In this document: in pieces, positions 43,759-63,227 of the stretch
How positions within the stretch are numbered: position 1 is the stretch's first letter
Layout: the number at the start of each line of letters is the position of its first letter
Source: a virus
Lineage: Duplodnaviria; Heunggongvirae; Uroviricota; Caudoviricetes
Direction: 5' to 3' (one strand)
DNA length: 64,000 nucleotides
IMG/VR virus record: IMGVR_UViG_2778261571_000004
Notes under the pieces: model-generated
Seen by the model: only the letters and a program-made list of their open reading frames with translations
Told to the model about the DNA's origin: nothing
Databases searched by the model: none
Made by a program: the position numbers and the translations under genes

Positions 43759-46098
43759 TTACTCTTCTACTGACTCGGTGGGGGTATCTTTTGCTCTCCG
43801 GTCATCGATTGCCTGCAAAGCCGCAATGATTTCAGCCAGTGGCTTCTCCCGATACATCTCGACGATCTGCGATTTGGTGTATTTCTTGTCACCAATTTCA
43901 ACTCGCCCGCTGGCGTTCTTTGGCAGGTATCCTTCTTCCAGCATGTACTCGACGAGCGATTCGATAACGTCGAGGCCACGAGTAGGATCGAAGTAGAATT
44001 TCCAGGTGCATTTGCCATACGGTGGTGCAACTTTGTTTTTGATGCATTCTGCGCCTACGTCCTGGCCGATCTTCTCTTTACCATCCTTCATCACCGATGC
44101 ACCAAGACGGATACGTACAGAAGCGTAGAACTTCGGTGAATCTCCACCTGGCGACGTAGTAGGGTCGCCAAACATTACACCGATTTTTGTGCGAACCTGA
44201 TTCAAGAAGATGATGCAGGCGTTGTATTTGCGTGCCCACAAAGCCAGAGTAGGGAAGTTCGCACTCGTCGCACGAGCCAGTGCCGTATTGTCGTTCATGT
44301 TTAGCTGATCTTTGTCTTTGGCTGTGCCTTCAGCCATCTTTTCGAACTTCTCGGCTTTGGAGTTCGGAACCATAGACGCAAGAGAGTCAGCCACGATACA
44401 GATAGGTGCTGATTCGGGGATAAGCTCTTCATCACGAACCAATTTAAGTATTGTGCCGATCAACTCTACAGAGTCTTCGAAGGTATCTGGCTGCTTGTAT
44501 ACCCACTGACCGTCATCCTCATCTGCGTTCAGGCCATTGGCTACAGCCAGGCCAACGTCAAAACTGTTTTCATGATCGAGGAATACCGCCAGACCATCTT
44601 GTTTTTGAGCGGAGATCATCGCTGCTGTTGCAAGGAATGTGTTGTGGCTGATAATCCCGTTAGACCAGAAAGAGTGTGTTTCCGGCATCGCTACGTCGAA
44701 CGTTGGTGCTTCACCTTCCTCAATAGCCACGACTTCGTCGTAGAACAAGTTAGAGCCAATTACCGCTGCCAGTTGTGCAAACAGATGCTCGTTAAAACGA
44801 TTCTTTCTGCCAATGAAGGAGACATAGATTTCTCGCAGTTTGTCTATTCCGACACGATCGCCGCGGCCAATAACGTGGTCTACCAGAGCGTAGTCTTCAC
44901 GGGTGGTCTTGGTGAGCGACTCGTAGAGTGATTTCACTAAGCCGCTGATGTGCGGAACATAGCCTGAGTAAGTGCGGTCAAAACCAATGTCCCGTTTGGT
45001 TGCCACTGATAAACGTGCCGGAGATTCGAAACCAATCGTTGACAGAAAAAGGTCGTAATTAGAGCCACTGAATGACAGCCGGTAATATGTATTTTCATAA
45101 CCCGCGACGTGTTTTTCAGAGATAGTTGACGTAATCCCCAGATTCAGGAGCATGAGGCGAATTTGCTGTAGCAGCAGCCCACTCGCGCTCACAACCTCAA
45201 TGCAGCGACCATCATTGACGTGGCATTCCAGCTCAAAGTAGCCGCGAAGGAATGCAATTTGAGCCTCGCTATTGGCGCGACGCACACTCAACGGAACCTG
45301 CTTGCCAGCAGCTTTCTCATACTCCAGACCATATTCTTTAAAAAGCAGCGAACGCACCTCTTTGCTAAACAGCACATGGTCTTCCGAGCCGTTATGTTTT
45401 CTCGTAACTGGCATCTTGTCTGATACCAGCGAAATGAGGCGGTAGTACTCATCCTTGATGAAAGGATCTGTGTTAGAAAAATTCACTGAATTTTCAGAGG
45501 CCACGTATCCGTCAGCAATTAAATAGCCCATCAGTTTTGCGATATTGGCATCCAGGTGCTGATCGCCGAATTGATGTGTGCCAACCATTGAAGGAATCGT
45601 GTCGCCTACACTGATTTTTTCAGCATGTCGCCAGACGACATTACCTAAGTCGTCAACCACACGGATTGGGTGACGGAACGTAGCCTCGATATAACCGCCT
45701 GATGCCAGCTTAATACGCTTGAATTTGCGACGGTTGTTCCATGTCAGGTGTGAGGTCTTCTCTATCACGCCATTTTCATTGATGAGTCCAACGTTATGCT
45801 CTACATCGCGAGTAGTGCATGTCGCTTTGTACCCTTCAATCTCAAACAACTCTTTCACTGTTACCATTCCACGCTCCGTCAGCAGCATGGTGTCTGCGGT
45901 AACACATTTCCCCGCGCTTGGTGGCCCGAATACTTCTACGATACGACCACATGGGAAACCGCCATCGTAACGACCGGAAATAGCTTTGTTTAACGGAGGA
46001 AAGCCTGTGTCAATCCAATGAGTTACTTTCTGAATTTCGTCGTTGCTACCGATTTTCTTTTTCAGAGCAAGTGCCAGTGCGGATTTTCCTTTTGCCAT
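43759..46098 (-). CDS. RecA-family recombinase interrupted by an in-frame intein
   Basis: N-extein ...GRIVEVFGPPSAGK (Walker A) then Cys; C-extein resumes TFLATAAM...; exteins total 357 aa, RecA-sized. Confidence 0.8.
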   Translation of the reverse strand: MAKGKSALALALKKKIGSNDEIQKVTHWIDTGFPPLNKAISGRYDGGFPCGRIVEVFGPPSAGKCVTADTMLLTERGMVTVKELFEIEGYKATCTTRDVEHNVGLINENGVIEKTSHLTWNNRRKFKRIKLASGGYIEATFRHPIRVVDDLGNVVWRHAEKISVGDTIPSMVGTHQFGDQHLDANIAKLMGYLIADGYVASENSVNFSNTDPFIKDEYYRLISLVSDKMPVTRKHNGSEDHVLFSKEVRSLLFKEYGLEYEKAAGKQVPLSVRRANSEAQIAFLRGYFELECHVNDGRCIEVVSASGLLLQQIRLMLLNLGITSTISEKHVAGYENTYYRLSFSGSNYDLFLSTIGFESPARLSVATKRDIGFDRTYSGYVPHISGLVKSLYESLTKTTREDYALVDHVIGRGDRVGIDKLREIYVSFIGRKNRFNEHLFAQLAAVIGSNLFYDEVVAIEEGEAPTFDVAMPETHSFWSNGIISHNTFLATAAMISAQKQDGLAVFLDHENSFDVGLAVANGLNADEDDGQWVYKQPDTFEDSVELIGTILKLVRDEELIPESAPICIVADSLASMVPNSKAEKFEKMAEGTAKDKDQLNMNDNTALARATSANFPTLALWARKYNACIIFLNQVRTKIGVMFGDPTTSPGGDSPKFYASVRIRLGASVMKDGKEKIGQDVGAECIKNKVAPPYGKCTWKFYFDPTRGLDVIESLVEYMLEEGYLPKNASGRVEIGDKKYTKSQIVEMYREKPLAEIIAALQAIDDRRAKDTPTESVEE
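44641..45906 (-). mobile_element. intein (about 422 aa) with LAGLIDADG homing-endonuclease domain inside the recA-like P-loop
   Basis: Starts CVTADTMLL, ends ...ISHN followed by Thr+1; LMGYLIADGYV and FLRGYFELECHV LAGLIDADG-type motifs; coordinates from residue counting. Confidence 0.7.
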
Positions 46099-50052: not shown

Positions 50053-50381
50053 TGATGCCCGCCAATTGGCGGGCATCTGTTCTCTGTAAAGGTGTCTGGC
50101 ATCGTCTGGTTCGTTAACGTTTACTAAACCAATGGTGACAAAAATTAGTTATCTTTGAAAAATAAAGGTTGCATGAAAAGAAGGGGTATGCGTTAATAGC
50201 ATCGTTGGTTTGCAAGACAGACCTTATGTAAGCAGTTTTAGTAAAGCAGTCTCAGTTCAGTGTTATCTTCTGATTTCCCTTCTTCGTGAGTCTCCTCCTT
50301 AAGTGCCTAAGTAAGTCCCAATCTATACAGATCAAATTCTCGCCGCACTATGTGGCTCACAAAATTAAGAAGGTAATATCT

Positions 50382-50597
50382 ATGTCTAATAAAATGACTG
50401 GTTTAGTAAAATGGTTTAACTCTGATAAAGGCTTTGGCTTTATTTCTCCTGCTGATGGCAGTAAAGATGTTTTTGTACATTTTTCGGCAATTCAGAGTAA
50501 TAATTTCCGCACTTTGGAAGAAGGCCAGCAGGTCGAATTCTCTATCGAGAATGGTGCTAAAGGCCCAGCAGCAGCAAATGTCGTTGCTCTAAGCTGA
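50382..50597 (+). CDS. cold-shock protein, CspA family
   Basis: [20 protein letters not shown]...[11 protein letters not shown]1/RNP2 motifs; long 5' leader. Confidence 0.85.
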
Positions 50598-50873
50598 TTC
50601 AACGCTGATGATCCTCATTTCTACAATAACGAAGACGGTGTAAGCCTGAGTGGATAGATTTGTAGGATTGTACAAGTTGAATAAATTAGCATGGTAAGGC
50701 CATGCTAATTAAATCGACACAACGGCCAGTTTATTCCATAAAAGTGAATTGCCCATTGTGGCGAAATGCGGGGTTGCCGCATGAATAGTCAAAGGCAGAA
50801 GCTAACTGCCGGCATGGCAAAACAAAGTGCGTAAGAGGAGTGACTTCCTCAACAAGCGCCATAATTCTTTATA

Positions 50874-53900: not shown

Positions 53901-54407
53901 CGCTGTAATCAGTGTGCTTATGATTTTTGCAAAATCGTTGCGTTGGAACACGCTACCGATGTCGGAAGTAAGCAGGATGATGTTGCCTTTGGCATATGTA
54001 GAAACCAACTGTTCGAGCGAGAGACGCGGTACAAAGTAGAACTGTTCTCGTGTGTTGGCCACCGTCATTAGTTCGCAGATGTCGCGATATCCTTGCTCAT
54101 TTTTAATTAGAGCGGTAAATGAGTAGTTACGTCCCCGCTCTAATGATTCCATACATCTCATAGATTCTTTAGCAAGTTTAGCCCGGTGCTCGTATGTGGG
54201 ATCATCAACAATGTTTAGTTTCACACCACAAATAACCGCCATGTCGTCACCAGCGGCACGTTGTAGTGGAATAACGCTCGCAATATTCATGCTATCTGCT
54301 GAAATTACAGCGGTGTAGCCAGCTTCTCTGGCAATCTTCACCGCGTTTTCTGCTTTTAGAGCCGACTCCCCAAGTGAGAAGTCAGTTCGAACCATCAGTG
54401 CCTTCAT
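50901..54407 (-). CDS. dnaE: DNA polymerase III alpha subunit homolog (DnaE-type, PHP domain)
   Basis: 1168 aa; Pol III alpha signature GRGSSAGSLVAWCIGIT and PHP N-terminus. Confidence 0.9.
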   Translation of the reverse strand: MKALMVRTDFSLGESALKAENAVKIAREAGYTAVISADSMNIASVIPLQRAAGDDMAVICGVKLNIVDDPTYEHRAKLAKESMRCMESLERGRNYSFTALIKNEQGYRDICELMTVANTREQFYFVPRLSLEQLVSTYAKGNIILLTSDIGSVFQRNDFAKIISTLITAGGKDNFYSVVYPHPTPFYDQINVRAMKVASALKIEPVAFYPAYYESIDDADIKDIAHMVTNNIKIDQPHRLRIPHQRDNAINGRRHLLEALKAFSVRMDVPVTAAMASTTQDSIIDACTWRWHELPPALPKMADDEPATLMKLAVAGLRKRLTTKEFGYTPPASENRVYVERLKYEMNTLTRLGFCGYFLMVRDLMNHSRETGIPVGPGRGSSAGSLVAWCIGITNVDPIRHGLLFERFINPERLDLPDADLDFSQARRHEVIEYLNERYGEDYVAGIPNFTYLGAASALRDTARIYGVESADMAVSKELKNVEDDSLPLEELREQLASLDKYATKYPDAFNAACKLQSLMRGFGRHAAGMIVAGVPLTERTPVERRGDARCIAFDKRYCEAMGLIKLDVLGLATLDLLDSAKRYIKENTGEDINLDAISLEDRKVLDGFAAGYTQGVFQLESGPMRKLLKDLGGGIEPMSFKTVVATTALFRPGPIQSGMLDDYVSVAKGFMAPHSIHPRLEEVTRETNGVLLYQEQIMQSSRVLAGFSMAEADALRSAIGKKNMDKMKAIGSDFVERAQAGWVTLSLKNGGTVEVHKHAKLDCSDGKRRSYSEAISDGIDYVEIVSEQEGLSKEKAQEIWDAFEKFGGYAFNKSHSVAYSLISYQSMWLKTHYPAEFFAAALTILGEDKHQGLVKDALTYGIRVLPPDVNVSSNRIEIRTLEDGSQALYAPFSAVKGCSENGCQAIMRAREKVGGKFESVAQFDEAVEKRACNSRVRESLHKVGAFASIEPGSLPATDPERLRDQAELMGNLIIDAVKASRPFEMNPKRSAEINVLMTRMAAEMGLGEELIRPTIGIKPKIMIILDNANGNDARTGYFMENGYDDFKAKLLTVGDLRMGDLYVTGVCKKVKDKEKDYTKDEIGQFTDFIREEINLVRPTYILTCGSRSTALFNNKSKPSDLIGRKEYFPELDATVFYGFNPNILYFRPEEGERLEAILADIAETINK

Positions 54408-58590: not shown

Positions 58591-58977
58591 ATGTCTGATA
58601 ACAAGATTGAATTTATAGAAAGTCGCTACGCTGCTTTTATCGCAGGGTTGATTGAATCCTCACCTATGAGCCAGGCCCAGATAGCCAAAACAATTGGGTA
58701 TAAAAACGCCAACAACCTTTCTTTAATTAAAAGCGGCAAAATTCCTTTGCCTATCGATAAGGTTCGTCCGCTGGCGCTGGCACTGGGTATTGAGCCAAGT
58801 CGTCTTATGATGATGGTGCTGGAAGAACGCCAACCTGAACTCGCAGCATTTTTATACAAAGAAGGCACCGCTCCTCTTAACGAGGACGAAAAACAGGTTC
58901 TTGCTGCATATAACGAGCGATTCGGTAAAGAGAAAGGCGCATCACAAAAGGTTGTTGAGGCCATAAAGTCTCTATGA
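58591..58977 (+). CDS. HTH (XRE-family) transcriptional regulator, repressor-like
   Basis: SQAQIAKTIGYKNANNLSLIKSGK helix-turn-helix; plus-strand, convergent with integrase. Confidence 0.6.
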   Translation: MSDNKIEFIESRYAAFIAGLIESSPMSQAQIAKTIGYKNANNLSLIKSGKIPLPIDKVRPLALALGIEPSRLMMMVLEERQPELAAFLYKEGTAPLNEDEKQVLAAYNERFGKEKGASQKVVEAIKSL

Positions 58978-60075
58978 AAAATTTACACGAATAAGCTCTG
59001 TTGATAGACGATCTCCCTTAAATTTGTGGTCAATTTCGTCTAAATCCGGTTGCTCTACGATTGATGCGATGTACGTCGAGAAACTTTCTAAGGCGTCTCG
59101 CATCTCGTCCATATAATCGTGCCGGTCGTAGACCCGATCTATCCCCTCAAGACTGTGGTTCATGATTTTACGTGATACCTCCTGGCTTATGCCTAATGCT
59201 GGGAAGTAACTACGCGCAGTACGGCGCAAATCTCGGGGTGTAAATGGCTCAAGCTCCATCAGTTCTGGTCGTTCCAGAATACGACGTAATGCCTGGGCTA
59301 TTGCCACTTTAGACATAGGAAGGTCTTTCCCGATTTTTTTATTCGAAGGCACGAGCCACTGGCTGTCTTTACCATATTCGAACAACTCTTCAATACAAGT
59401 GCGCATTAATGAGCTTAAAGGCAGAGAATGCTCACGGGCAGATTTGTTCCTCTTGCCTTGATTCCAAACCCCACGCTTAAGATTGAACTCACTTTTTTTA
59501 GCCCGCAGTACTTCGTCAGGTCGTCTTGCGGATACAAGACATAGCCTGGCAGCCCATTTTGTACCAGCACACACATTGAAGTAGTCCCATATATTCCAGA
59601 ACACCCATACCTCTGCGTCGGTCAGCTTCCGCTCGCGAGGTGTGGGCTTTGCGCCACCGGCAACTTTGTTAAGTGACATATCGTTTAACGGTGACACGTC
59701 TATCATCCCCTGGAAGGCGCACCAGCTAAGGAACTGCTTCATCAGAGAGAAAACGCGGCGGCCCATAACAATTTTGCCATCCAGTATTAGTGGGTTGACC
59801 AGTTGGTTCACCATGAACCTATTAATGTCACTTACTTTTACATCGGCAATGTGCGGCAAAACATGTATCAAAATACAATGAACAGCGATCTCTGGCCGAC
59901 GTCTGGTTATCAGCAGAGATAAGCGAGTGAATAACATGAATGCGTCCGAGAATCTCATGTCATTGCTAACCTGCGAGATCATAACGGCCTGCATTTGAGA
60001 TGCTCTTTCGAGATACTCTATCGCCTCTTTTGAGGTGTTCTCCGCAGCGCGTGCTCTGTCAAAGCTATTTTTCAT
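58972..60075 (-). CDS. tyrosine recombinase / integrase
   Basis: C-terminal catalytic blocks (ARRPDE, RDLRRTA, NHS, VYDRHDY). Confidence 0.65.
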   Translation of the reverse strand: MKNSFDRARAAENTSKEAIEYLERASQMQAVMISQVSNDMRFSDAFMLFTRLSLLITRRRPEIAVHCILIHVLPHIADVKVSDINRFMVNQLVNPLILDGKIVMGRRVFSLMKQFLSWCAFQGMIDVSPLNDMSLNKVAGGAKPTPRERKLTDAEVWVFWNIWDYFNVCAGTKWAARLCLVSARRPDEVLRAKKSEFNLKRGVWNQGKRNKSAREHSLPLSSLMRTCIEELFEYGKDSQWLVPSNKKIGKDLPMSKVAIAQALRRILERPELMELEPFTPRDLRRTARSYFPALGISQEVSRKIMNHSLEGIDRVYDRHDYMDEMRDALESFSTYIASIVEQPDLDEIDHKFKGDRLSTELIRVNFS

Positions 60076-60171: not shown

Positions 60172-60206
60172 GCAATGATTCCATACATAGTAGGTATGGA
60201 ATCATT
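60172..60206. promoter_or_regulatory. perfect 12-bp-arm palindrome ATGATTCCATAC-N7-GTATGGAATCAT upstream of integrase, approximate
   Basis: Half-site ATGTATGGAATCATTT recurs at about 61987..62007 and 62997..63017. Confidence 0.4.
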
Positions 60207-60921: not shown

Positions 60922-60950
60922 AAAAAAGGGGCCGAAGCCCCTTTGAATTT
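60922..60950. terminator. hairpin terminator (ggggcc gaa gcccc flanked by A-run and T-run), approximate
   Basis: Direct reading. Confidence 0.5.
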
Positions 60951-61100
60951 TGCGCTGAAAAAAAGTGTTGCTAGGATGTTAGCAAGCTATGGTTAAGAAC
61001 GTCTGCCGTAATTGTCTATCACAGCGTTGAGCGGTCTGGTTTATGTTAGCGGAGTCTTAATCTGGGTGATTAAAAGGCCAAACCGCTCAACGCTGTGTCT

Positions 61101-61186
61101 GGCGGAGAGTAATGGAATCGAACCATCATCGCTTGCGCAATGGGACGGTTTTCAAGACCGCTTGAGCACCATGCTCCCTACTCTCC
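61101..61186 (-). tRNA. tRNA-Ser (anticodon UGA), type II with long variable arm, approximate
   Basis: GGTTCGATTCC T-loop, CUUGAAA anticodon loop, 7-bp acceptor pairing, encoded CCA; hand-folded. Confidence 0.55.
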
Positions 61187-61550
61187 GGCCGTTGTGGTGG
61201 CCGGTACTGAATCTCCGGCATACGGTGCAGCCAATTAGGACTACGGACGATCACCGCTCGCGAAAGGGAAGATTTGCGGCCGCATTTCCCTAACATCCAA
61301 GAAAGCTATCGCATCAGTCTGCGAATCCACCACAACGGTAAGATCACTACCTTTCGACCAGTCATTGTGCACATGAACGACGATTAACCGTAATGATCTT
61401 ATCGTTGTGTTGTGAAGCCAGATGCTTATCTTCTGGTTGCTTCAAAGAGCTGCACTTCCTCACAACGGTAAGAGCACTGGTCTGACTCTATCGATTTACG
61501 GGCTTGTGGGTCAGTATCGCCGATTCGCCCAATGCTCTTACCTGTTGTGT

Positions 61551-61626
61551 TGGTGCCGGTTAACGGGATCGAACCGCTGACATCCTGCTTACAAGGCAGA
61601 CGCTCTACCAACTGAGCTAAACCGGC
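61551..61626 (-). tRNA. tRNA-Thr (anticodon UGU), approximate
   Basis: GCCGGTT acceptor, D-arm GCTCAGTTGGTAGAGC, anticodon loop CUUGUAA, GGTTCGATCC, CCA. Confidence 0.65.
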
Positions 61627-61630
61627 AATT

Positions 61631-61717
61631 TGGTGGGGAGTGATGGAGTCGAACCACCCGAGTCGCAATGACAGTAGATTTACAGTCTACCCCGCTGCCC
61701 CTACGGACTAACTCCCC
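61631..61717 (-). tRNA. tRNA-Tyr (anticodon GUA), type II, approximate
   Basis: Anticodon loop CUGUAAA, long variable arm, GGTTCGACTCC, CCA. Confidence 0.6.
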
Positions 61718-61722
61718 TAAAT

Positions 61723-61797
61723 TGGCGATGGTGGGTGGATTCGAACCACCGACCAGTTGGTTAACAGCCAACTGCTCTACCGCTGAGCTACACCATC
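61723..61797 (-). tRNA. tRNA-Asn (anticodon GUU), approximate
   Basis: GATGGTG acceptor, GCTCAGCGGTAGAGC D-arm, anticodon loop CUGUUAA, GGTTCGAATCC, CCA; sequence differs from E. coli tRNA-Asn as I recall it. Confidence 0.7.
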
Positions 61798-62546
61798 AAT
61801 TCAGCACTGCCAGTATTTATTACTCAACAGTGCCAATCGCGACGGTTTAGTTTCTGCCAGGAAACGCACCGCTACTTGCACTTTTCGTTAGTGCCAGACG
61901 CTTTCGACTTCGCTCAATAGTAGAAGGCAAAATCTTTAAGTAGATGATGTTTCTGAGGACAGCACCTACTTTGTAATTTATACAATGTGATGTATGGAAT
62001 CATTTGTTGTGAAAACAGGCACCAATGGCAACAGTGGTTAAACCTACACAACAATCCTGTCTTCACAACGTTGAGGCCACTACTCCGATTGAATGTTTGC
62101 CCAACATGTTACATATCAACGCTCGCCGGTATCTCTGTGAATAGAACCTTAGAATTGATAAAAATGTAATGGCCTCAACGTTGTGTGCTGGCTAACCATA
62201 CCAGCCGGGCTACGTCGCCGCTTTTTAACCCAGTATAAACGACATAATTGAACAAAATGACGTAACAGGATGGGCGGTCAGTGGCTAAGAATCCGGGAGT
62301 CATATGGAGTTGAAAATATACCAACCGCCCATTCTGTTACTTCATCGGAGGGAACATGAATGTTCCCTCCTGCGTTCTGCAATCACACTCGCTCAGTGTG
62401 TCCCATTTCGGTAACGAGGCTGGAAACTGACCTCGCTGGTGTTTGGCTTATTAGGCTACTGCCAGATAGACTTCTTCGTTTGCACTTGTATTTAAGTTCA
62501 AACAGTCGCGTCTCAACGAAAACAAAGTCATCTTATATATAAAAGA

Positions 62547-62570
62547 TAAGTAAGTAAATACTTATCACCA
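62547..62570 (-). promoter_or_regulatory. motif-2 palindrome (GATAAGTA-agtaaa-TACTTATC), approximate
   Basis: Perfect 8-bp arms. Confidence 0.4.
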
Positions 62571-62575
62571 TGTTT

Positions 62576-62866
62576 TTATTCGGTTGTGACTTTTTTGATC
62601 AAGGCCACTCTACGACTAGGTGTTCTTGTGATGGTGGCAGTGAATCGTTTCGCTTGGATAGTAATGGTTTCGTTCTCCTTAAGTTGCCCGTAGCGAGTTT
62701 CCACCAGGGTGCCAAGACGCCACAGACCATCATCGATACGTTTATGACTGGCAAATTTAATCAGCAGCAGTTTTACAACTAACTGACCTACGTAAAAGGC
62801 GAATGCGACTCCGGCCGCTAAGAAATAGGTGGCCAACCACCAGTCCCAAGAAGTTAAATTGCTCAT
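62576..62866 (-). CDS. membrane protein (N-terminal TM helix), hypothetical
   Basis: 96-aa ORF with hydrophobic N-terminus. Confidence 0.45.
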   Translation of the reverse strand: MSNLTSWDWWLATYFLAAGVAFAFYVGQLVVKLLLIKFASHKRIDDGLWRLGTLVETRYGQLKENETITIQAKRFTATITRTPSRRVALIKKVTTE

Positions 62867-63011
62867 TTTCTAACCTTTGTTTCATGAACTACCCGATACA
62901 CACGCTTTCCGATGCACAGTGTTTTGGTTTTAAGTTCCTGCTTAATTAAATCACGACAGATGCCGAAGCCGATAAGGAAGCCACCCATAAAAGCTAATGA
63001 GATGTATGGAA

Positions 63012-63227
63012 TCATTTTAACGCTCCTGATTCTACTAATTGCTGTAGCAATACTTTCCCTTTATCAGTTAACTGGTAGTTGGCCGAACACCACGTTTCAG
63101 AAACGTTTGCAACCAACCCTAACCGCTCTAACTTAGCTCGCGTTTTAGGCTTCCAGTACTCAGGGAACTCCGGCCACTTACTTATTTCATGAAGCGTTTC
63201 TTTCTCCCGTTTACTTAATACGATCAT
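63012..63227 (-). CDS. small hypothetical protein (71 aa)
   Basis: ATGA coupling with ligase stop. Confidence 0.45.
   Translation of the reverse strand: MIVLSKREKETLHEISKWPEFPEYWKPKTRAKLERLGLVANVSETWCSANYQLTDKGKVLLQQLVESGALK

Follow-up and report, generated by a model that had tools for sequence, protein, structure and literature searches.

The early region of phage T7 carries RNase III signals (R0.3, R1.1, and others); these related hairpins of ~20 bp are cleaved by the host enzyme and so divide up a polycistronic transcript. Daniels et al. are said to have reported in Virology in 1988 that RNase III processes the late RNA of phage lambda, and we take the hairpin at lambda positions 44,787 to 44,862 to be the site of that processing. 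HDV-like “theta” ribozymes, described in the 2024 literature, lie 3′ of phage tRNAs and have been proposed to free the tRNA end. Phage tRNAs are themselves thought to counter host defenses that target tRNAs, and phage-plasmids of the kind analyzed here commonly carry resistance genes. The cleft of RNase III accommodates ~22 bp of double-stranded RNA, and at RNase III sites in vivo, the two central pairs are preferentially G-C/C-G (PMC6212723). STnc100/PasD small RNAs (sRNAs) are located near tRNAs and near the holin-lysin genes of lambdoid prophages (PMC13192938).

We analyzed a 64,000-nt stretch of DNA (the window) derived from an SSU5-like phage-plasmid of E. coli. Positions 60923 to 62563 on the minus strand appear to form a single noncoding operon in which four tRNAs are interleaved with four hairpins of 78 to 122 nt (E1 to E4), all of them on the minus strand. 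In transcript order, a promoter-like stretch is followed by a leader RNA of ~330 nt, E4, a 266-nt spacer, tRNA-Asn, tRNA-Tyr, and tRNA-Thr; beyond tRNA-Thr come E3, E2, a 144-nt structured domain, tRNA-Ser, E1, and an intrinsic terminator. The tRNAs of P7 and P1 are annotated within the C1-controlled ban operon, so cotranscription is documented for relatives, and from that annotation we infer that the hairpins and tRNAs are cotranscribed here as well. The features are given below in transcript order; hairpin scores are from R1, a covariance model trained solely on 30 lambdoid hairpins, that of lambda included.

62515 to 62563, minus strand: putative promoter-like stretch AAGTATTTACTTACTTATCTTTTATATATAAGATGAC at the operon head; the conserved block that opens the leader alignment
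62186 to 62514, minus strand: structured leader RNA, ~330 nt, conserved across relatives and ending 1 nt before E4
62064 to 62185, minus strand: hairpin E4 (D type, 122 nt), with a 20-bp stem and an 82-nt loop; R1, 29.6 bits
62006 to 62069, minus strand: competing helix, in which the terminal 6 nt of the E4 3′ arm and the 8 nt beyond them (GUUGUGAAGACAGG) pair with CCUGUUUUCACAAC farther downstream
61990 to 62004, minus strand: operator-like 15-mer AATGATTCCATACAT between E4 and tRNA-Asn, present in five copies in the window
61723 to 61797, minus strand: tRNA-Asn (GUU); ARAGORN (gtt) and Rfam tRNA (75.5 bits)
61631 to 61717, minus strand: tRNA-Tyr (GUA); ARAGORN (gta) and Rfam
61551 to 61626, minus strand: tRNA-Thr (UGU), CCA encoded; ARAGORN (tgt) and Rfam
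61461 to 61549, minus strand: hairpin E3 (89 nt), 1 nt past the CCA of tRNA-Thr; R1, 60.5 bits
61410 to 61460, minus strand: spacer with the small hairpin UGAAGCAACCAGAAGAUAAGCAUCUGGCUUCA, ending in CACAAC; the same spacer lies behind hairpins of P1 and Klebsiella elements
61331 to 61409, minus strand: hairpin E2 (79 nt); R1, 40.3 bits (E, 3e-8)
61187 to 61330, minus strand: post-hairpin domain, 144 nt, closed by the 12-bp helix CCGUUGUGGUGG / CCACCACAACGG
61100 to 61186, minus strand: tRNA-Ser (UGA), atypical, CCA encoded; ARAGORN (tga) and the Rfam tRNA-Sec model
61020 to 61097, minus strand: hairpin E1 (A type, 78 nt), 2 nt past the CCA of tRNA-Ser; R1, 30.5 bits
60923 to 60946, minus strand: intrinsic terminator GGGGCUUCGGCCCC followed by U6, identified by sequence, predicted fold, and a minus-strand Rfam match to a terminator-like fragment

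A sequence-only reading of this DNA had described four tRNAs (Ser, Thr, Tyr, and Asn) of a non-host type among at least four long inverted repeats. ARAGORN found all four tRNAs on the minus strand and Rfam confirmed three of them; tRNA-Ser reached 46.6 bits with the tRNA-Sec model, for which the cutoff is 47. Their non-host character is supported indirectly, in that a megablast search of 5,426 complete E. coli genomes placed the 1.7-kb region at 811 plasmid sites and at only 10 chromosomal sites. The inverted repeats could be refined to the coordinates given above for E1 to E4. The perfect 15-bp arms noted for E1 are present within a longer stem of 20 bp, one pair of which is G.U. A short hairpin placed at 62349 to 62372 also exists, but it lies at 62347 to 62370 and is a helix of the separate leader RNA. 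In this region, Rfam searches at the gathering threshold and at E values up to 10 otherwise returned only chance-level microRNA and tmRNA matches. The presence of tRNA-Tyr varies among close relatives. The block AAGTATTTACTTACTTATCTTTTATATATAAGATGAC is kept in the aligned Escherichia, Salmonella, and Klebsiella relatives; a consensus promoter scan did not call the stretch.

Each stem of E1 to E4 runs unbroken for 20 bp, apart from a single bulge or mismatch at most, and all four have the conserved base CACAACGUUGAG in common. The 12-mer CACAACGKTRAG, counted with up to one mismatch, occurs nine times in the window versus 1.03 times expected, a number reached in none of 100 shuffles, and seven of these occurrences are arms of E1 to E4. 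On the minus strand, the hairpins have folding z-scores of −4.4 to −9.7, and none of 200 shuffles folds as well. Every hairpin in the window also scored better with R1 on the minus strand than on the plus strand, as illustrated by E3 (60.5 bits, E of 2.4e-13, versus 36.9 bits), E1 (30.5 bits, E of 1e-5, versus 22.6 bits), and E4 (29.6 bits, E of 1.6e-5, versus 22.3 bits). Beyond these four elements, the best R1 score in the 64 kb was 11.3 bits; by R1 and the 12-mer count alike, no copy of the family lies in the window outside 61020 to 62185. The same model detects the copies in P1, D6, SSU5, and Klebsiella phage-plasmids.

Covariation was assessed in 45 distinct stem copies. Paired bases filled 95.4% of the cells, and compensatory changes were seen at 13 of the 20 pairs (141 cells); none of 500 shuffles matched this, and slid registers paired at only ~35%. 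Pairing ends at position 20, and the 20-bp length is constant across the Escherichia, Salmonella, and Klebsiella elements and across three phage lineages. When the stems are read in the tRNA sense, they contain 68 G.U cells versus 13 A.C cells. Together with the minus-strand preference of R1 and the fold energies of the lambda copy (−33.5 kcal/mol on the late-transcript strand versus −26.9 kcal/mol on the opposite strand), this excess indicates that the tRNA strand is the one that is read. The stem structure is under selection, and E1 to E4 belong, at the level of RNA, to a single hairpin family. Its defining part is a stem of 20 bp with 12 conserved bp at the base; the loop is free to vary. 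The earlier suggestion that the related stems mark a family of structured RNAs, to be checked by folding and covariance analysis, is thereby borne out by the compensatory changes, by conservation of the hairpins in related and unrelated phages, and by the strand that they share with the tRNAs.

The family occurs in P1, P7, D6, SSU5, and Klebsiella phage-plasmids, in many lambdoid prophages, and in lambda itself. In these other phages, copies are restricted to tRNA operons or to the Q-holin leader, those of lambdoid prophages lying between Q and the holin gene. The hairpin starts 5 nt beyond the U-run of tR′ in lambdoid phages; the lambda copy is immediately past tR′, and it and the tR′ stem are the only long duplexes between pR′ and S. 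The E3 stem (CACAAC-A-GGUAAGAGCAUUGG, in which one A is bulged) differs very little from this lambda late-leader stem. Like the window hairpins, the lambda hairpin is read in the sense orientation within a long phage transcript and lies directly behind the end of a structured RNA; in both cases, a helix behind the hairpin has GUUGUG in common with the stem. It differs in that there is one copy between terminator and lysis genes rather than four among tRNAs, two of which abut a CCA, and in that its loop is unrelated to the loops in the window. At ~60 loci, the gap between the CCA of tRNA-Ser, tRNA-Thr, or tRNA-Asn and the hairpin is 0 to 2 nt, as it is in P1 and D6, and the gap behind tRNA-Ser is 1 to 2 nt in all relatives that have both elements. 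Some phage tRNAs have no hairpin behind them; examples are tRNA-Ile of P7 and, in the window, the junctions of Asn with Tyr and of Tyr with Thr. Elements of the family are 59 to 122 nt long; their stem hardly varies, and the 132 distinct hairpins fall into 49 unrelated loop groups. When 185,579 species-representative genomes were scanned for the pattern, only two stretches came up, and inspection of one of them revealed a tandem repeat; representative chromosomes lack the family. A full-text literature search with the arm sequences gave unrelated primer matches only.

We slightly favor the view that E1 to E4 serve as “punctuation” in a polycistronic operon of tRNAs and noncoding RNAs, being putative processing sites for host RNase III. 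We infer a role for RNase III because of the geometry of the stems and the 1988 report on lambda late RNA. In the pathway that we envisage, host RNase III would cut the double-stranded stems of E1 to E4, and each tRNA or structured RNA would be parted from the RNA downstream. After such a cut, the tRNA would still carry a short 3′ trailer that exonucleases could trim to the CCA, and the new 5′ end of the downstream RNA may pair again with a CACAAC-containing segment to form a competing helix. That the hairpin starts directly behind a CCA or tR′ is a position that would fit a processing signal. The conserved base forms a near-dyad, CAAC|GUUG, centered on C-G/G-C, within stems of 20 bp. Several details argue against RNase III, however. 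A dyad placed on the center of CAAC|GUUG would leave only 6 bp below it, and a dyad placed in the middle of the stem would have G-C/A-U as its central pairs, which is not the preferred pattern. Moreover, RNase III is only weakly sequence specific, and strict conservation over 12 bp exceeds what the enzyme is usually presumed to need. Conserved loop motifs, AAGACUCCGC in E1 (kept across genera) and CACAGAG, AUGUnGGG, and AAUCGG in E4, hint at a function beyond that of a cleavage signal. The phage tRNAs that lack a hairpin behind them also speak against punctuation by RNase III. If RNase III punctuation is the right reading, it would explain how phage-plasmid tRNAs mature from a long untranslated transcript by means of a host enzyme and a reusable signal, and it would tie the long-standing but seldom used lambda late-RNA observation to a family found in P1, in SSU5-like plasmids, and in hundreds of prophages.

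Other punctuating or structured phage RNAs resemble these hairpins in part. The T7 signals have no sequence relation to them, part mRNAs, and usually have an internal loop at the cut site, whereas the window stems are nearly perfect and lie between tRNAs and noncoding RNAs. T4 species 1 and species 2 (rnaC and rnaD) are likewise non-tRNA structured RNAs located directly downstream of a tRNA in an operon, and rnaC has a T-arm-like hairpin, as do some loops of the family. Their folds are different, however, and their termini lack a closing 20-bp stem; R1 found no match in the T4 tRNA region. The likeness to the stable RNAs of phage tRNA regions that had been proposed from the sequence is apt as to location. 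Theta ribozymes also start right behind the 3′ end of a phage tRNA, but they are nested double pseudoknots, whereas each window element is just one terminal stem of 20 bp capped by a variable loop, and cleavage here would need a host enzyme. A self-cleaving ribozyme was rejected as a candidate: Rfam, in which theta models may be missing, gave no ribozyme match at E values up to 10, and the loops have no common core. T-arm-like hairpins in some P1 and D6 loops (e.g., GGGUUCGAAUCCC; most family loops lack the motif) brought Y RNA/YrlA into consideration, and this candidate was also rejected. The models had no match in the window at E values up to 10, and the weak YrlA score in P1 (25.6 bits versus 69) lies over the tRNAs themselves.

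The hairpins might instead be precursors of stable or regulatory sRNAs, with the stem as scaffold or processing handle and the variable loop as the functional part. In that case, the loop could be a phage-specific base-pairing or protein-binding RNA, with which RNase III cleavage as a release step would be compatible. Loop diversity on a nearly constant stem, the retention of some loop motifs across genera, and the T-arm-like character of some loops are in keeping with this idea, as are the resemblance of a P1 domain beside a family hairpin to STnc100 (33.4 bits) and the retention of stable RNAs in the T4 tRNA cluster. We nonetheless regard it as rather unlikely, since structure prediction gave neither the D-type nor the A-type loops a consensus internal fold, since the window loops have no complementary target of at least 14 nt within the 64 kb (the longest, at 10 to 13 nt, are at chance level), and since unconstrained loops would explain total loop replacement equally easily. 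An extension in which the stem acts as a portable scaffold for display and processing, RNase III frees a phage-specific effector RNA with a hypervariable loop, and the arms enable cassette exchange is, in our estimation, unlikely. If it were true, these elements would represent a widespread unrecognized class of modular phage sRNA genes, lambda's included, whose loop RNAs might act in competition between coresident prophages or on host targets and whose tRNA/sRNA cassettes would be exchanged among lambda-like, P1-like, and SSU5-like phages.

Action at the DNA level, as MITE-like insertions (as suggested earlier) or as attC-like recombination sites that move tRNA/sRNA cassettes, would account for arms that resemble terminal inverted repeats on elements of 59 to 122 nt. 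It would also fit the Ser-Thr spacer, which among relatives takes more than 12 lengths from 8 to 646 nt through different sets of units; the tRNA/hairpin module, which is ~89% identical between otherwise unrelated P1-like and SSU5-like phages; the loop of the D6 and P7 hairpin behind tRNA-Ser, which is homologous to lambda sequence outside the hairpin; and a tyrosine recombinase gene 1 kb away (58972 to 60075). We consider this quite improbable. MITEs share the inverted repeats (here, 20-nt arms), but the flanks of E1 to E4 show no target-site duplication, precise filled and empty sites and dispersed copies are missing, and the species-representative genomes gave only chance matches. Indel variants differ by whole units, and both of their boundaries fall in register with the repeated CACAAC motif, which points to recombination between repeats and not to transposition. 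Integron attC sites are also imperfect palindromes of similar length at the 3′ ends of promoterless genes in a variable array, with one folded strand specifically used; the window elements, in contrast, are confined to transcribed noncoding operons of phages and lack the unpaired central spacer, the extrahelical bases, and IntI, and E1 has AGC/GCT where attC requires AAC/GTT. The recombinase matches only the generic Phage_integrase family; phage Cyrano has no such gene in the equivalent position, and the surroundings of the P1, D6, and Klebsiella copies carry no annotated recombinase. Action as RNA is indicated by the excess of G.U on one strand and by an orientation that is constant with respect to transcription. 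Decay is another conceivable origin: the hairpins could be functionless remnants of tRNAs or duplications, kept similar by gene conversion. Some spacers do end like the 3′ end of tRNA-Thr (e.g., CCGGCACCA), T-arm-like pieces occur in some loops, and the region is highly recombinogenic; compensatory change at 13 of 20 stem pairs, a 20-bp length held across genera and lineages, and maintained placement beside CCA or tR′ make debris a very improbable explanation. Finally, strong stems in an untranslated transcript and a small terminator-like hairpin behind E2 (61309 to 61324) might suggest terminators or attenuators of the tRNA operon, a role that we find scarcely credible. There is no U-run behind any of E1 to E4, the real terminator is separate at 60923 to 60946, and transcription has to continue past E4, E3, and E2 to reach the tRNA genes beyond them.

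Under RNase III punctuation, too, the arms may matter at the level of DNA. The repeated arms probably served as recombination breakpoints, yielding a mosaic cluster that differs even between near-identical plasmids, and they appear to be joints at which tRNA and sRNA modules are shuffled between unrelated temperate phages. Such shuffling bears on how phages acquire tRNAs. If the punctuation reading holds, open reading frames annotated over these elements (plp and upl of P1, orf-64 of lambda, and a hypothetical protein of Cyrano) are probably not genes.

The helix that closes the 144-nt domain pairs 61189 to 61200 with 61327 to 61338 and has GUUGUG in common with the E2 3′ arm. The domain includes a small hairpin, UCGCAGACUGAUGCGA, and the element CCGGAGAUUCAGUACCGG, and its unit architecture recurs in P1, D6, and lambdoid prophages; Rfam gave no match to it at E values up to 10. 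The corresponding P1 domain aligns to positions 31 to 147 of the STnc100 model (RF02076), including the outer helix UGGUG...CACCA, but at 33.4 bits it falls below the curated cutoff of 47, and STnc100 had no match in the window at the gathering threshold or at E values up to 10. STnc100 thus corresponds to the post-hairpin domain and not to the hairpin. Behind E4, the inverted repeat at 62006 to 62069 competes with the E4 base. Compensatory variants of this helix occur in aligned relatives, e.g., GUUGUGGCCACG / CGUGGCCACAAC in Klebsiella, and the 5′ strand of its extension is nearly invariant. As the dominant fold, it was rejected: the minimum-energy fold keeps the 20-bp stems, with E4 intact. 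The 15-mer copy at 61990 to 62004 is kept in Salmonella and Klebsiella relatives.

The leader RNA, beyond whose end E4 begins after 1 nt, includes the helix at 62347 to 62370 and a long hairpin at 62257 to 62345. Across 14 diverse relatives, its mean column identity is 84%, with long invariant blocks, and its indels have lengths that are not multiples of 3. Rfam returned weak tmRNA-like matches. Along with the loop diversity of the hairpins, this RNA offers leads for the sRNA biology of phage-plasmids. Seven of its 87 predicted pairs show compensatory changes, and these cluster in the helix at 62347 to 62370 and at the top of the helix at 62257 to 62345.

The window is part of an SSU5-like E. 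coli phage-plasmid. Many E. coli plasmids of ~110 kb match the 1.7-kb region at 99% identity, and phages CMS-2020a and Cyrano do so at 98%. ARAGORN recovered all four tRNAs (Ser, Thr, Tyr, and Asn) that the sequence-only reading had proposed, and the four long inverted repeats that it had placed among them (E1 to E4) are all present, each folding far better than shuffled sequence.

Features of the tRNA/non-coding unit (hairpins at refined coordinates, tRNAs from ARAGORN).
60923-60946, minus strand: strong intrinsic terminator closing the unit
61020-61097, minus strand: hairpin E1
61100-61186, minus strand: tRNA-Ser(tga)
61331-61409, minus strand: hairpin E2
61461-61549, minus strand: hairpin E3
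61551-61626, minus strand: tRNA-Thr(tgt)
61631-61717, minus strand: tRNA-Tyr(gta)
61723-61797, minus strand: tRNA-Asn(gtt)
62064-62185, minus strand: hairpin E4

A search of 5,426 complete E. coli genomes gave 821 places matching the 1.7-kb region, of which 811 were plasmid borne, so the tRNA genes are not host chromosomal, in keeping with the non-host type assigned to them from the sequence. The tRNAs of P7 and P1 are annotated within the C1-repressed ban operon, which supports cotranscription of the tRNAs in these relatives. The tRNA-Ser(UGA) is atypical: the general Rfam tRNA model misses it at gathering, it reaches 46.6 bits on the Rfam tRNA-Sec model (cutoff, 47), and the D6 record remarks that tRNAscan-SE leaves its amino acid uncalled. 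A 367-aa tyrosine recombinase (58972-60075, minus strand; Phage_integrase, E 3e-10) is found 1 kb away from the tRNA operon; phage Cyrano lacks it at the matching place, indicating that this neighborhood is variable.

The hairpins share a stem. Allowing one mismatch, the 12-mer CACAACGKTRAG occurs nine times in the window (1.03 expected), and seven of these occurrences are arms of E1 to E4. Two pattern scans of viral contigs, together with annotated relatives, gave a set of at least ~190 loci. Compared over 51 oriented copies, the stem measures 20 bp, and pairing collapses at position 21. Among 45 distinct stems, 95.4% of stem cells are paired and compensatory changes affect 13 of the 20 pairs (141 cells), a level of covariation reached by none of 500 shuffles; slid registers pair at ~35%. 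Positions 1 to 12 are conserved (CACAACGUUGAG), with variants compensated, and positions 13 to 16 vary freely. Read in the tRNA sense, the stems contain 68 G.U cells versus 13 A.C cells, and the opposite strand therefore pairs worse (89.3% versus 95.4%). Covariation and the G.U excess on the tRNA strand thus bear out the earlier suggestion of a family of structured RNA elements.

This family extends well beyond tRNA operons. The second scan of viral contigs found at least 120 loci, many of them prophages of 27 to 55 kb that have no tRNA in the vicinity. In E. coli chromosomes, the genes for antiterminator Q and the holin flank the element, which sits 5 nt past the U-run of the terminator tR', and a query with the Q-holin region matched 1,490 of the 5,426 genomes. 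The lambda copy (44,787-44,862) folds at -33.5 kcal/mol on the late-transcript strand versus -26.9 on the other. A covariance model, R1, trained on 30 lambdoid hairpins only, scored E3 at 60.5, E2 at 40.3, E1 at 30.5, and E4 at 29.6 bits, in every case higher on the minus strand. R1 also found four copies in P1, five or six in D6, three in one Klebsiella element, and one in SSU5, with no match in the T4 tRNA region. E1 to E4 are very probably RNA-level hairpins and members of the family to which the lambda copy belongs. Several annotated ORFs lie over family hairpins or tRNAs and are probably not genes: lambda orf-64 (44,621-44,815) overlaps the lambda hairpin (positions 488-563 of our lambda record, L190); P1 upl and plp (1102-1671 of the P1 record, L073) are antisense to the tRNA operon, plp overlapping tRNA-Thr by 30 nt; and Cyrano CYRAN_40 (1614-1826 of L001) overlaps tRNA-Ser.

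Placement of the hairpins follows a rule. E3 starts 1 nt past the CCA of tRNA-Thr and E1 2 nt past that of tRNA-Ser. Over ~60 loci, the gap after Ser is always 1 to 2 nt, and several alternative hairpin types follow Thr at 1 nt. P1, P7, and D6 obey the same rule with different hairpin types, and the final two bases of tRNA-Asn are shared with a hairpin in Klebsiella elements. E4 has no preceding tRNA and starts 1 nt past a ~330-nt conserved structured leader RNA. In two phage contigs (L015, 6907-7060; L020, 5560-5746), a hairpin beside a CI-like repressor gene directly abuts a tRNA 3' fragment (CCU anticodon arm, T arm, acceptor 3' strand, and CCA) whose 5' half is missing.

The spacers are mosaic. 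Among close relatives, the Ser-Thr spacer varies in length between 8 and 646 nt, with more than a dozen lengths represented (including 8, 195, 213, 217, 224, 294, 319-321, 364, 446, 465, 490, 493, and 646 nt); Klebsiella elements have an Asn-Ser spacer of 146 to 148 nt instead. The repeated units are the 20-bp hairpin, a small hairpin (GUGAAUGCRCAGGCUGAUGYGC or a variant), a variable stretch, and an element with a CACAAC end. Indels are bounded at both ends by repeated CACAAC, which points to recombination between repeats rather than transposition, and the Cyrano spacer ACACAAUU is a hairpin start fused to the end of the pre-Ser leader. SSU5-like and P1-like phages, otherwise unrelated, share the Ser-hairpin-Thr module at ~89% identity. 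The sequence-only reading had also raised MITE-like insertions; these were rejected on the absence of target duplications and of dispersed copies in the 64-kb window, over the rest of which R1 found nothing above 11.3 bits. An attC site was rejected on stem anatomy and the absence of an IntI integrase, the neighboring recombinase being a generic phage integrase not conserved at that place. Y RNA and ribozyme readings were rejected because the region matched none of these models in the Rfam copy searched, at E up to 10, and T4 species 1/2 because the fold differs and R1 found nothing there. A terminator reading was rejected because no U-run follows E1 to E4.

On balance, and with slightly better than even confidence, we read E1 to E4 as RNase III processing signals, at which the host enzyme would cut the hairpins and so punctuate the tRNA/non-coding transcript. 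RNase III is a symmetric dimer with a cleft for a duplex of ~22 bp, and G-C/C-G is preferred at the two central pairs of its double-cleavage sites in vivo (PMC6212723). Stem length in the family is kept at 20 bp, and the conserved base forms a near-dyad, CAAC|GUUG. In lambda, the tR' stem and the lambda hairpin are the only long duplexes between pR' and gene S. The RNase III sites of a 1988 lambda paper presumably lie in this hairpin (44,787-44,862), an assignment that is the weakest link in the argument. A competing helix could accompany processing: the last six bases of the 3' arm (GUUGUG) and the next few can pair with a downstream segment ending in CACAAC (E4, GUUGUGAAGACAGG / CCUGUUUUCACAAC; E2, CCGUUGUGGUGG / CCACCACAACGG; lambda, UUUCCGUUGUGCUG / CAGCACAACCCAAA). 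Its extension is compensatory between lineages (GUGG/CCAC, GUGA/UCRC, AUGA/UCAU, CUG/CAG, and, in Klebsiella, GCCACG/CGUGGC). The minimum-energy fold retains the 20-bp stem against this helix, which would thus form mainly once the stem is cut or opened.

Strict conservation over 12 bp, however, exceeds what RNase III is generally thought to need, and it is compatible with a less likely alternative in which the hairpins would be scaffolds for diverse small RNAs. The loops are compatible with it too. Among the matches listed for viral contigs L075 to L188, 132 distinct hairpins carry, on a stem that hardly changes, loops of 19 to 82 nt that fall into 49 unrelated groups, no similarity being detectable from one group to another, and some loops have T-arm-like hairpins or motifs conserved across genera. 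Moreover, the loop CUAAUUAAGCGAAUGCCGGAAGCAGAACCGGAUCACCAAAUGCGUACAGGCGUCAUCGCCGCCCAGC of the D6/P7 hairpin after tRNA-Ser (L004/L005) is homologous to lambda sequence just outside and 3' of the lambda hairpin (L190, 564-633), so the same cargo can lie inside or outside the stem.

The leader (62186-62563, minus strand; ~330 to 380 nt) is non-coding. In phage-plasmids of Escherichia, Salmonella (SSU5), and Klebsiella, its mean column identity is 84%, with long invariant blocks and indel lengths that are not multiples of 3. It has covarying helices at 62347-62370 and at the top of 62257-62345, matched no Rfam family apart from weak tmRNA-like ones, and looks like an undescribed structured RNA. 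In P1, its place is occupied by an annotated "dicF-like region" (L073, 2251-2352) that lies between the ban promoter and tRNA-Asn and precedes a family hairpin (1999-2079). Many plasmid records give the name "C-type natriuretic protein" to a 96-aa ORF (62576-62866, minus strand) upstream of the leader; the ORF matches nothing in Pfam, and the name looks like an annotation artifact.

The P1 domain past the last hairpin aligns below threshold with Rfam STnc100 (33.4 bits; cutoff, 47) over model positions 31 to 147, outer helix included. STnc100 and PasD are reported to be related prophage sRNAs near tRNAs and lysis genes (PMC13192938, 2026 preprint). The 144-nt domain of the window (61187-61330, minus strand) has the same architecture as the P1 domain but, with no match to STnc100 in the Rfam search, is not a demonstrable member.

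The 15-mer AATGATTCCATACAT has five copies in the window, four exact and one with one mismatch: 54142-54156 (+), 60174-60188 (+), 60192-60206 (-), 61990-62004 (-), and 63002-63016 (-). Two form a 33-bp palindrome (60174-60206), one overlaps the start codon of a 50-aa ORF (62863-63015), and the copy within the tRNA operon is kept in Salmonella and Klebsiella relatives; the 15-mer resembles a regulatory site, perhaps an operator. Finally, the cspA 5'-UTR thermoregulator (Rfam RF01766) is matched over its full length at 50204-50622 (plus strand; 187.6 bits), indicating that the phage-plasmid carries a cold-shock-type regulated gene.
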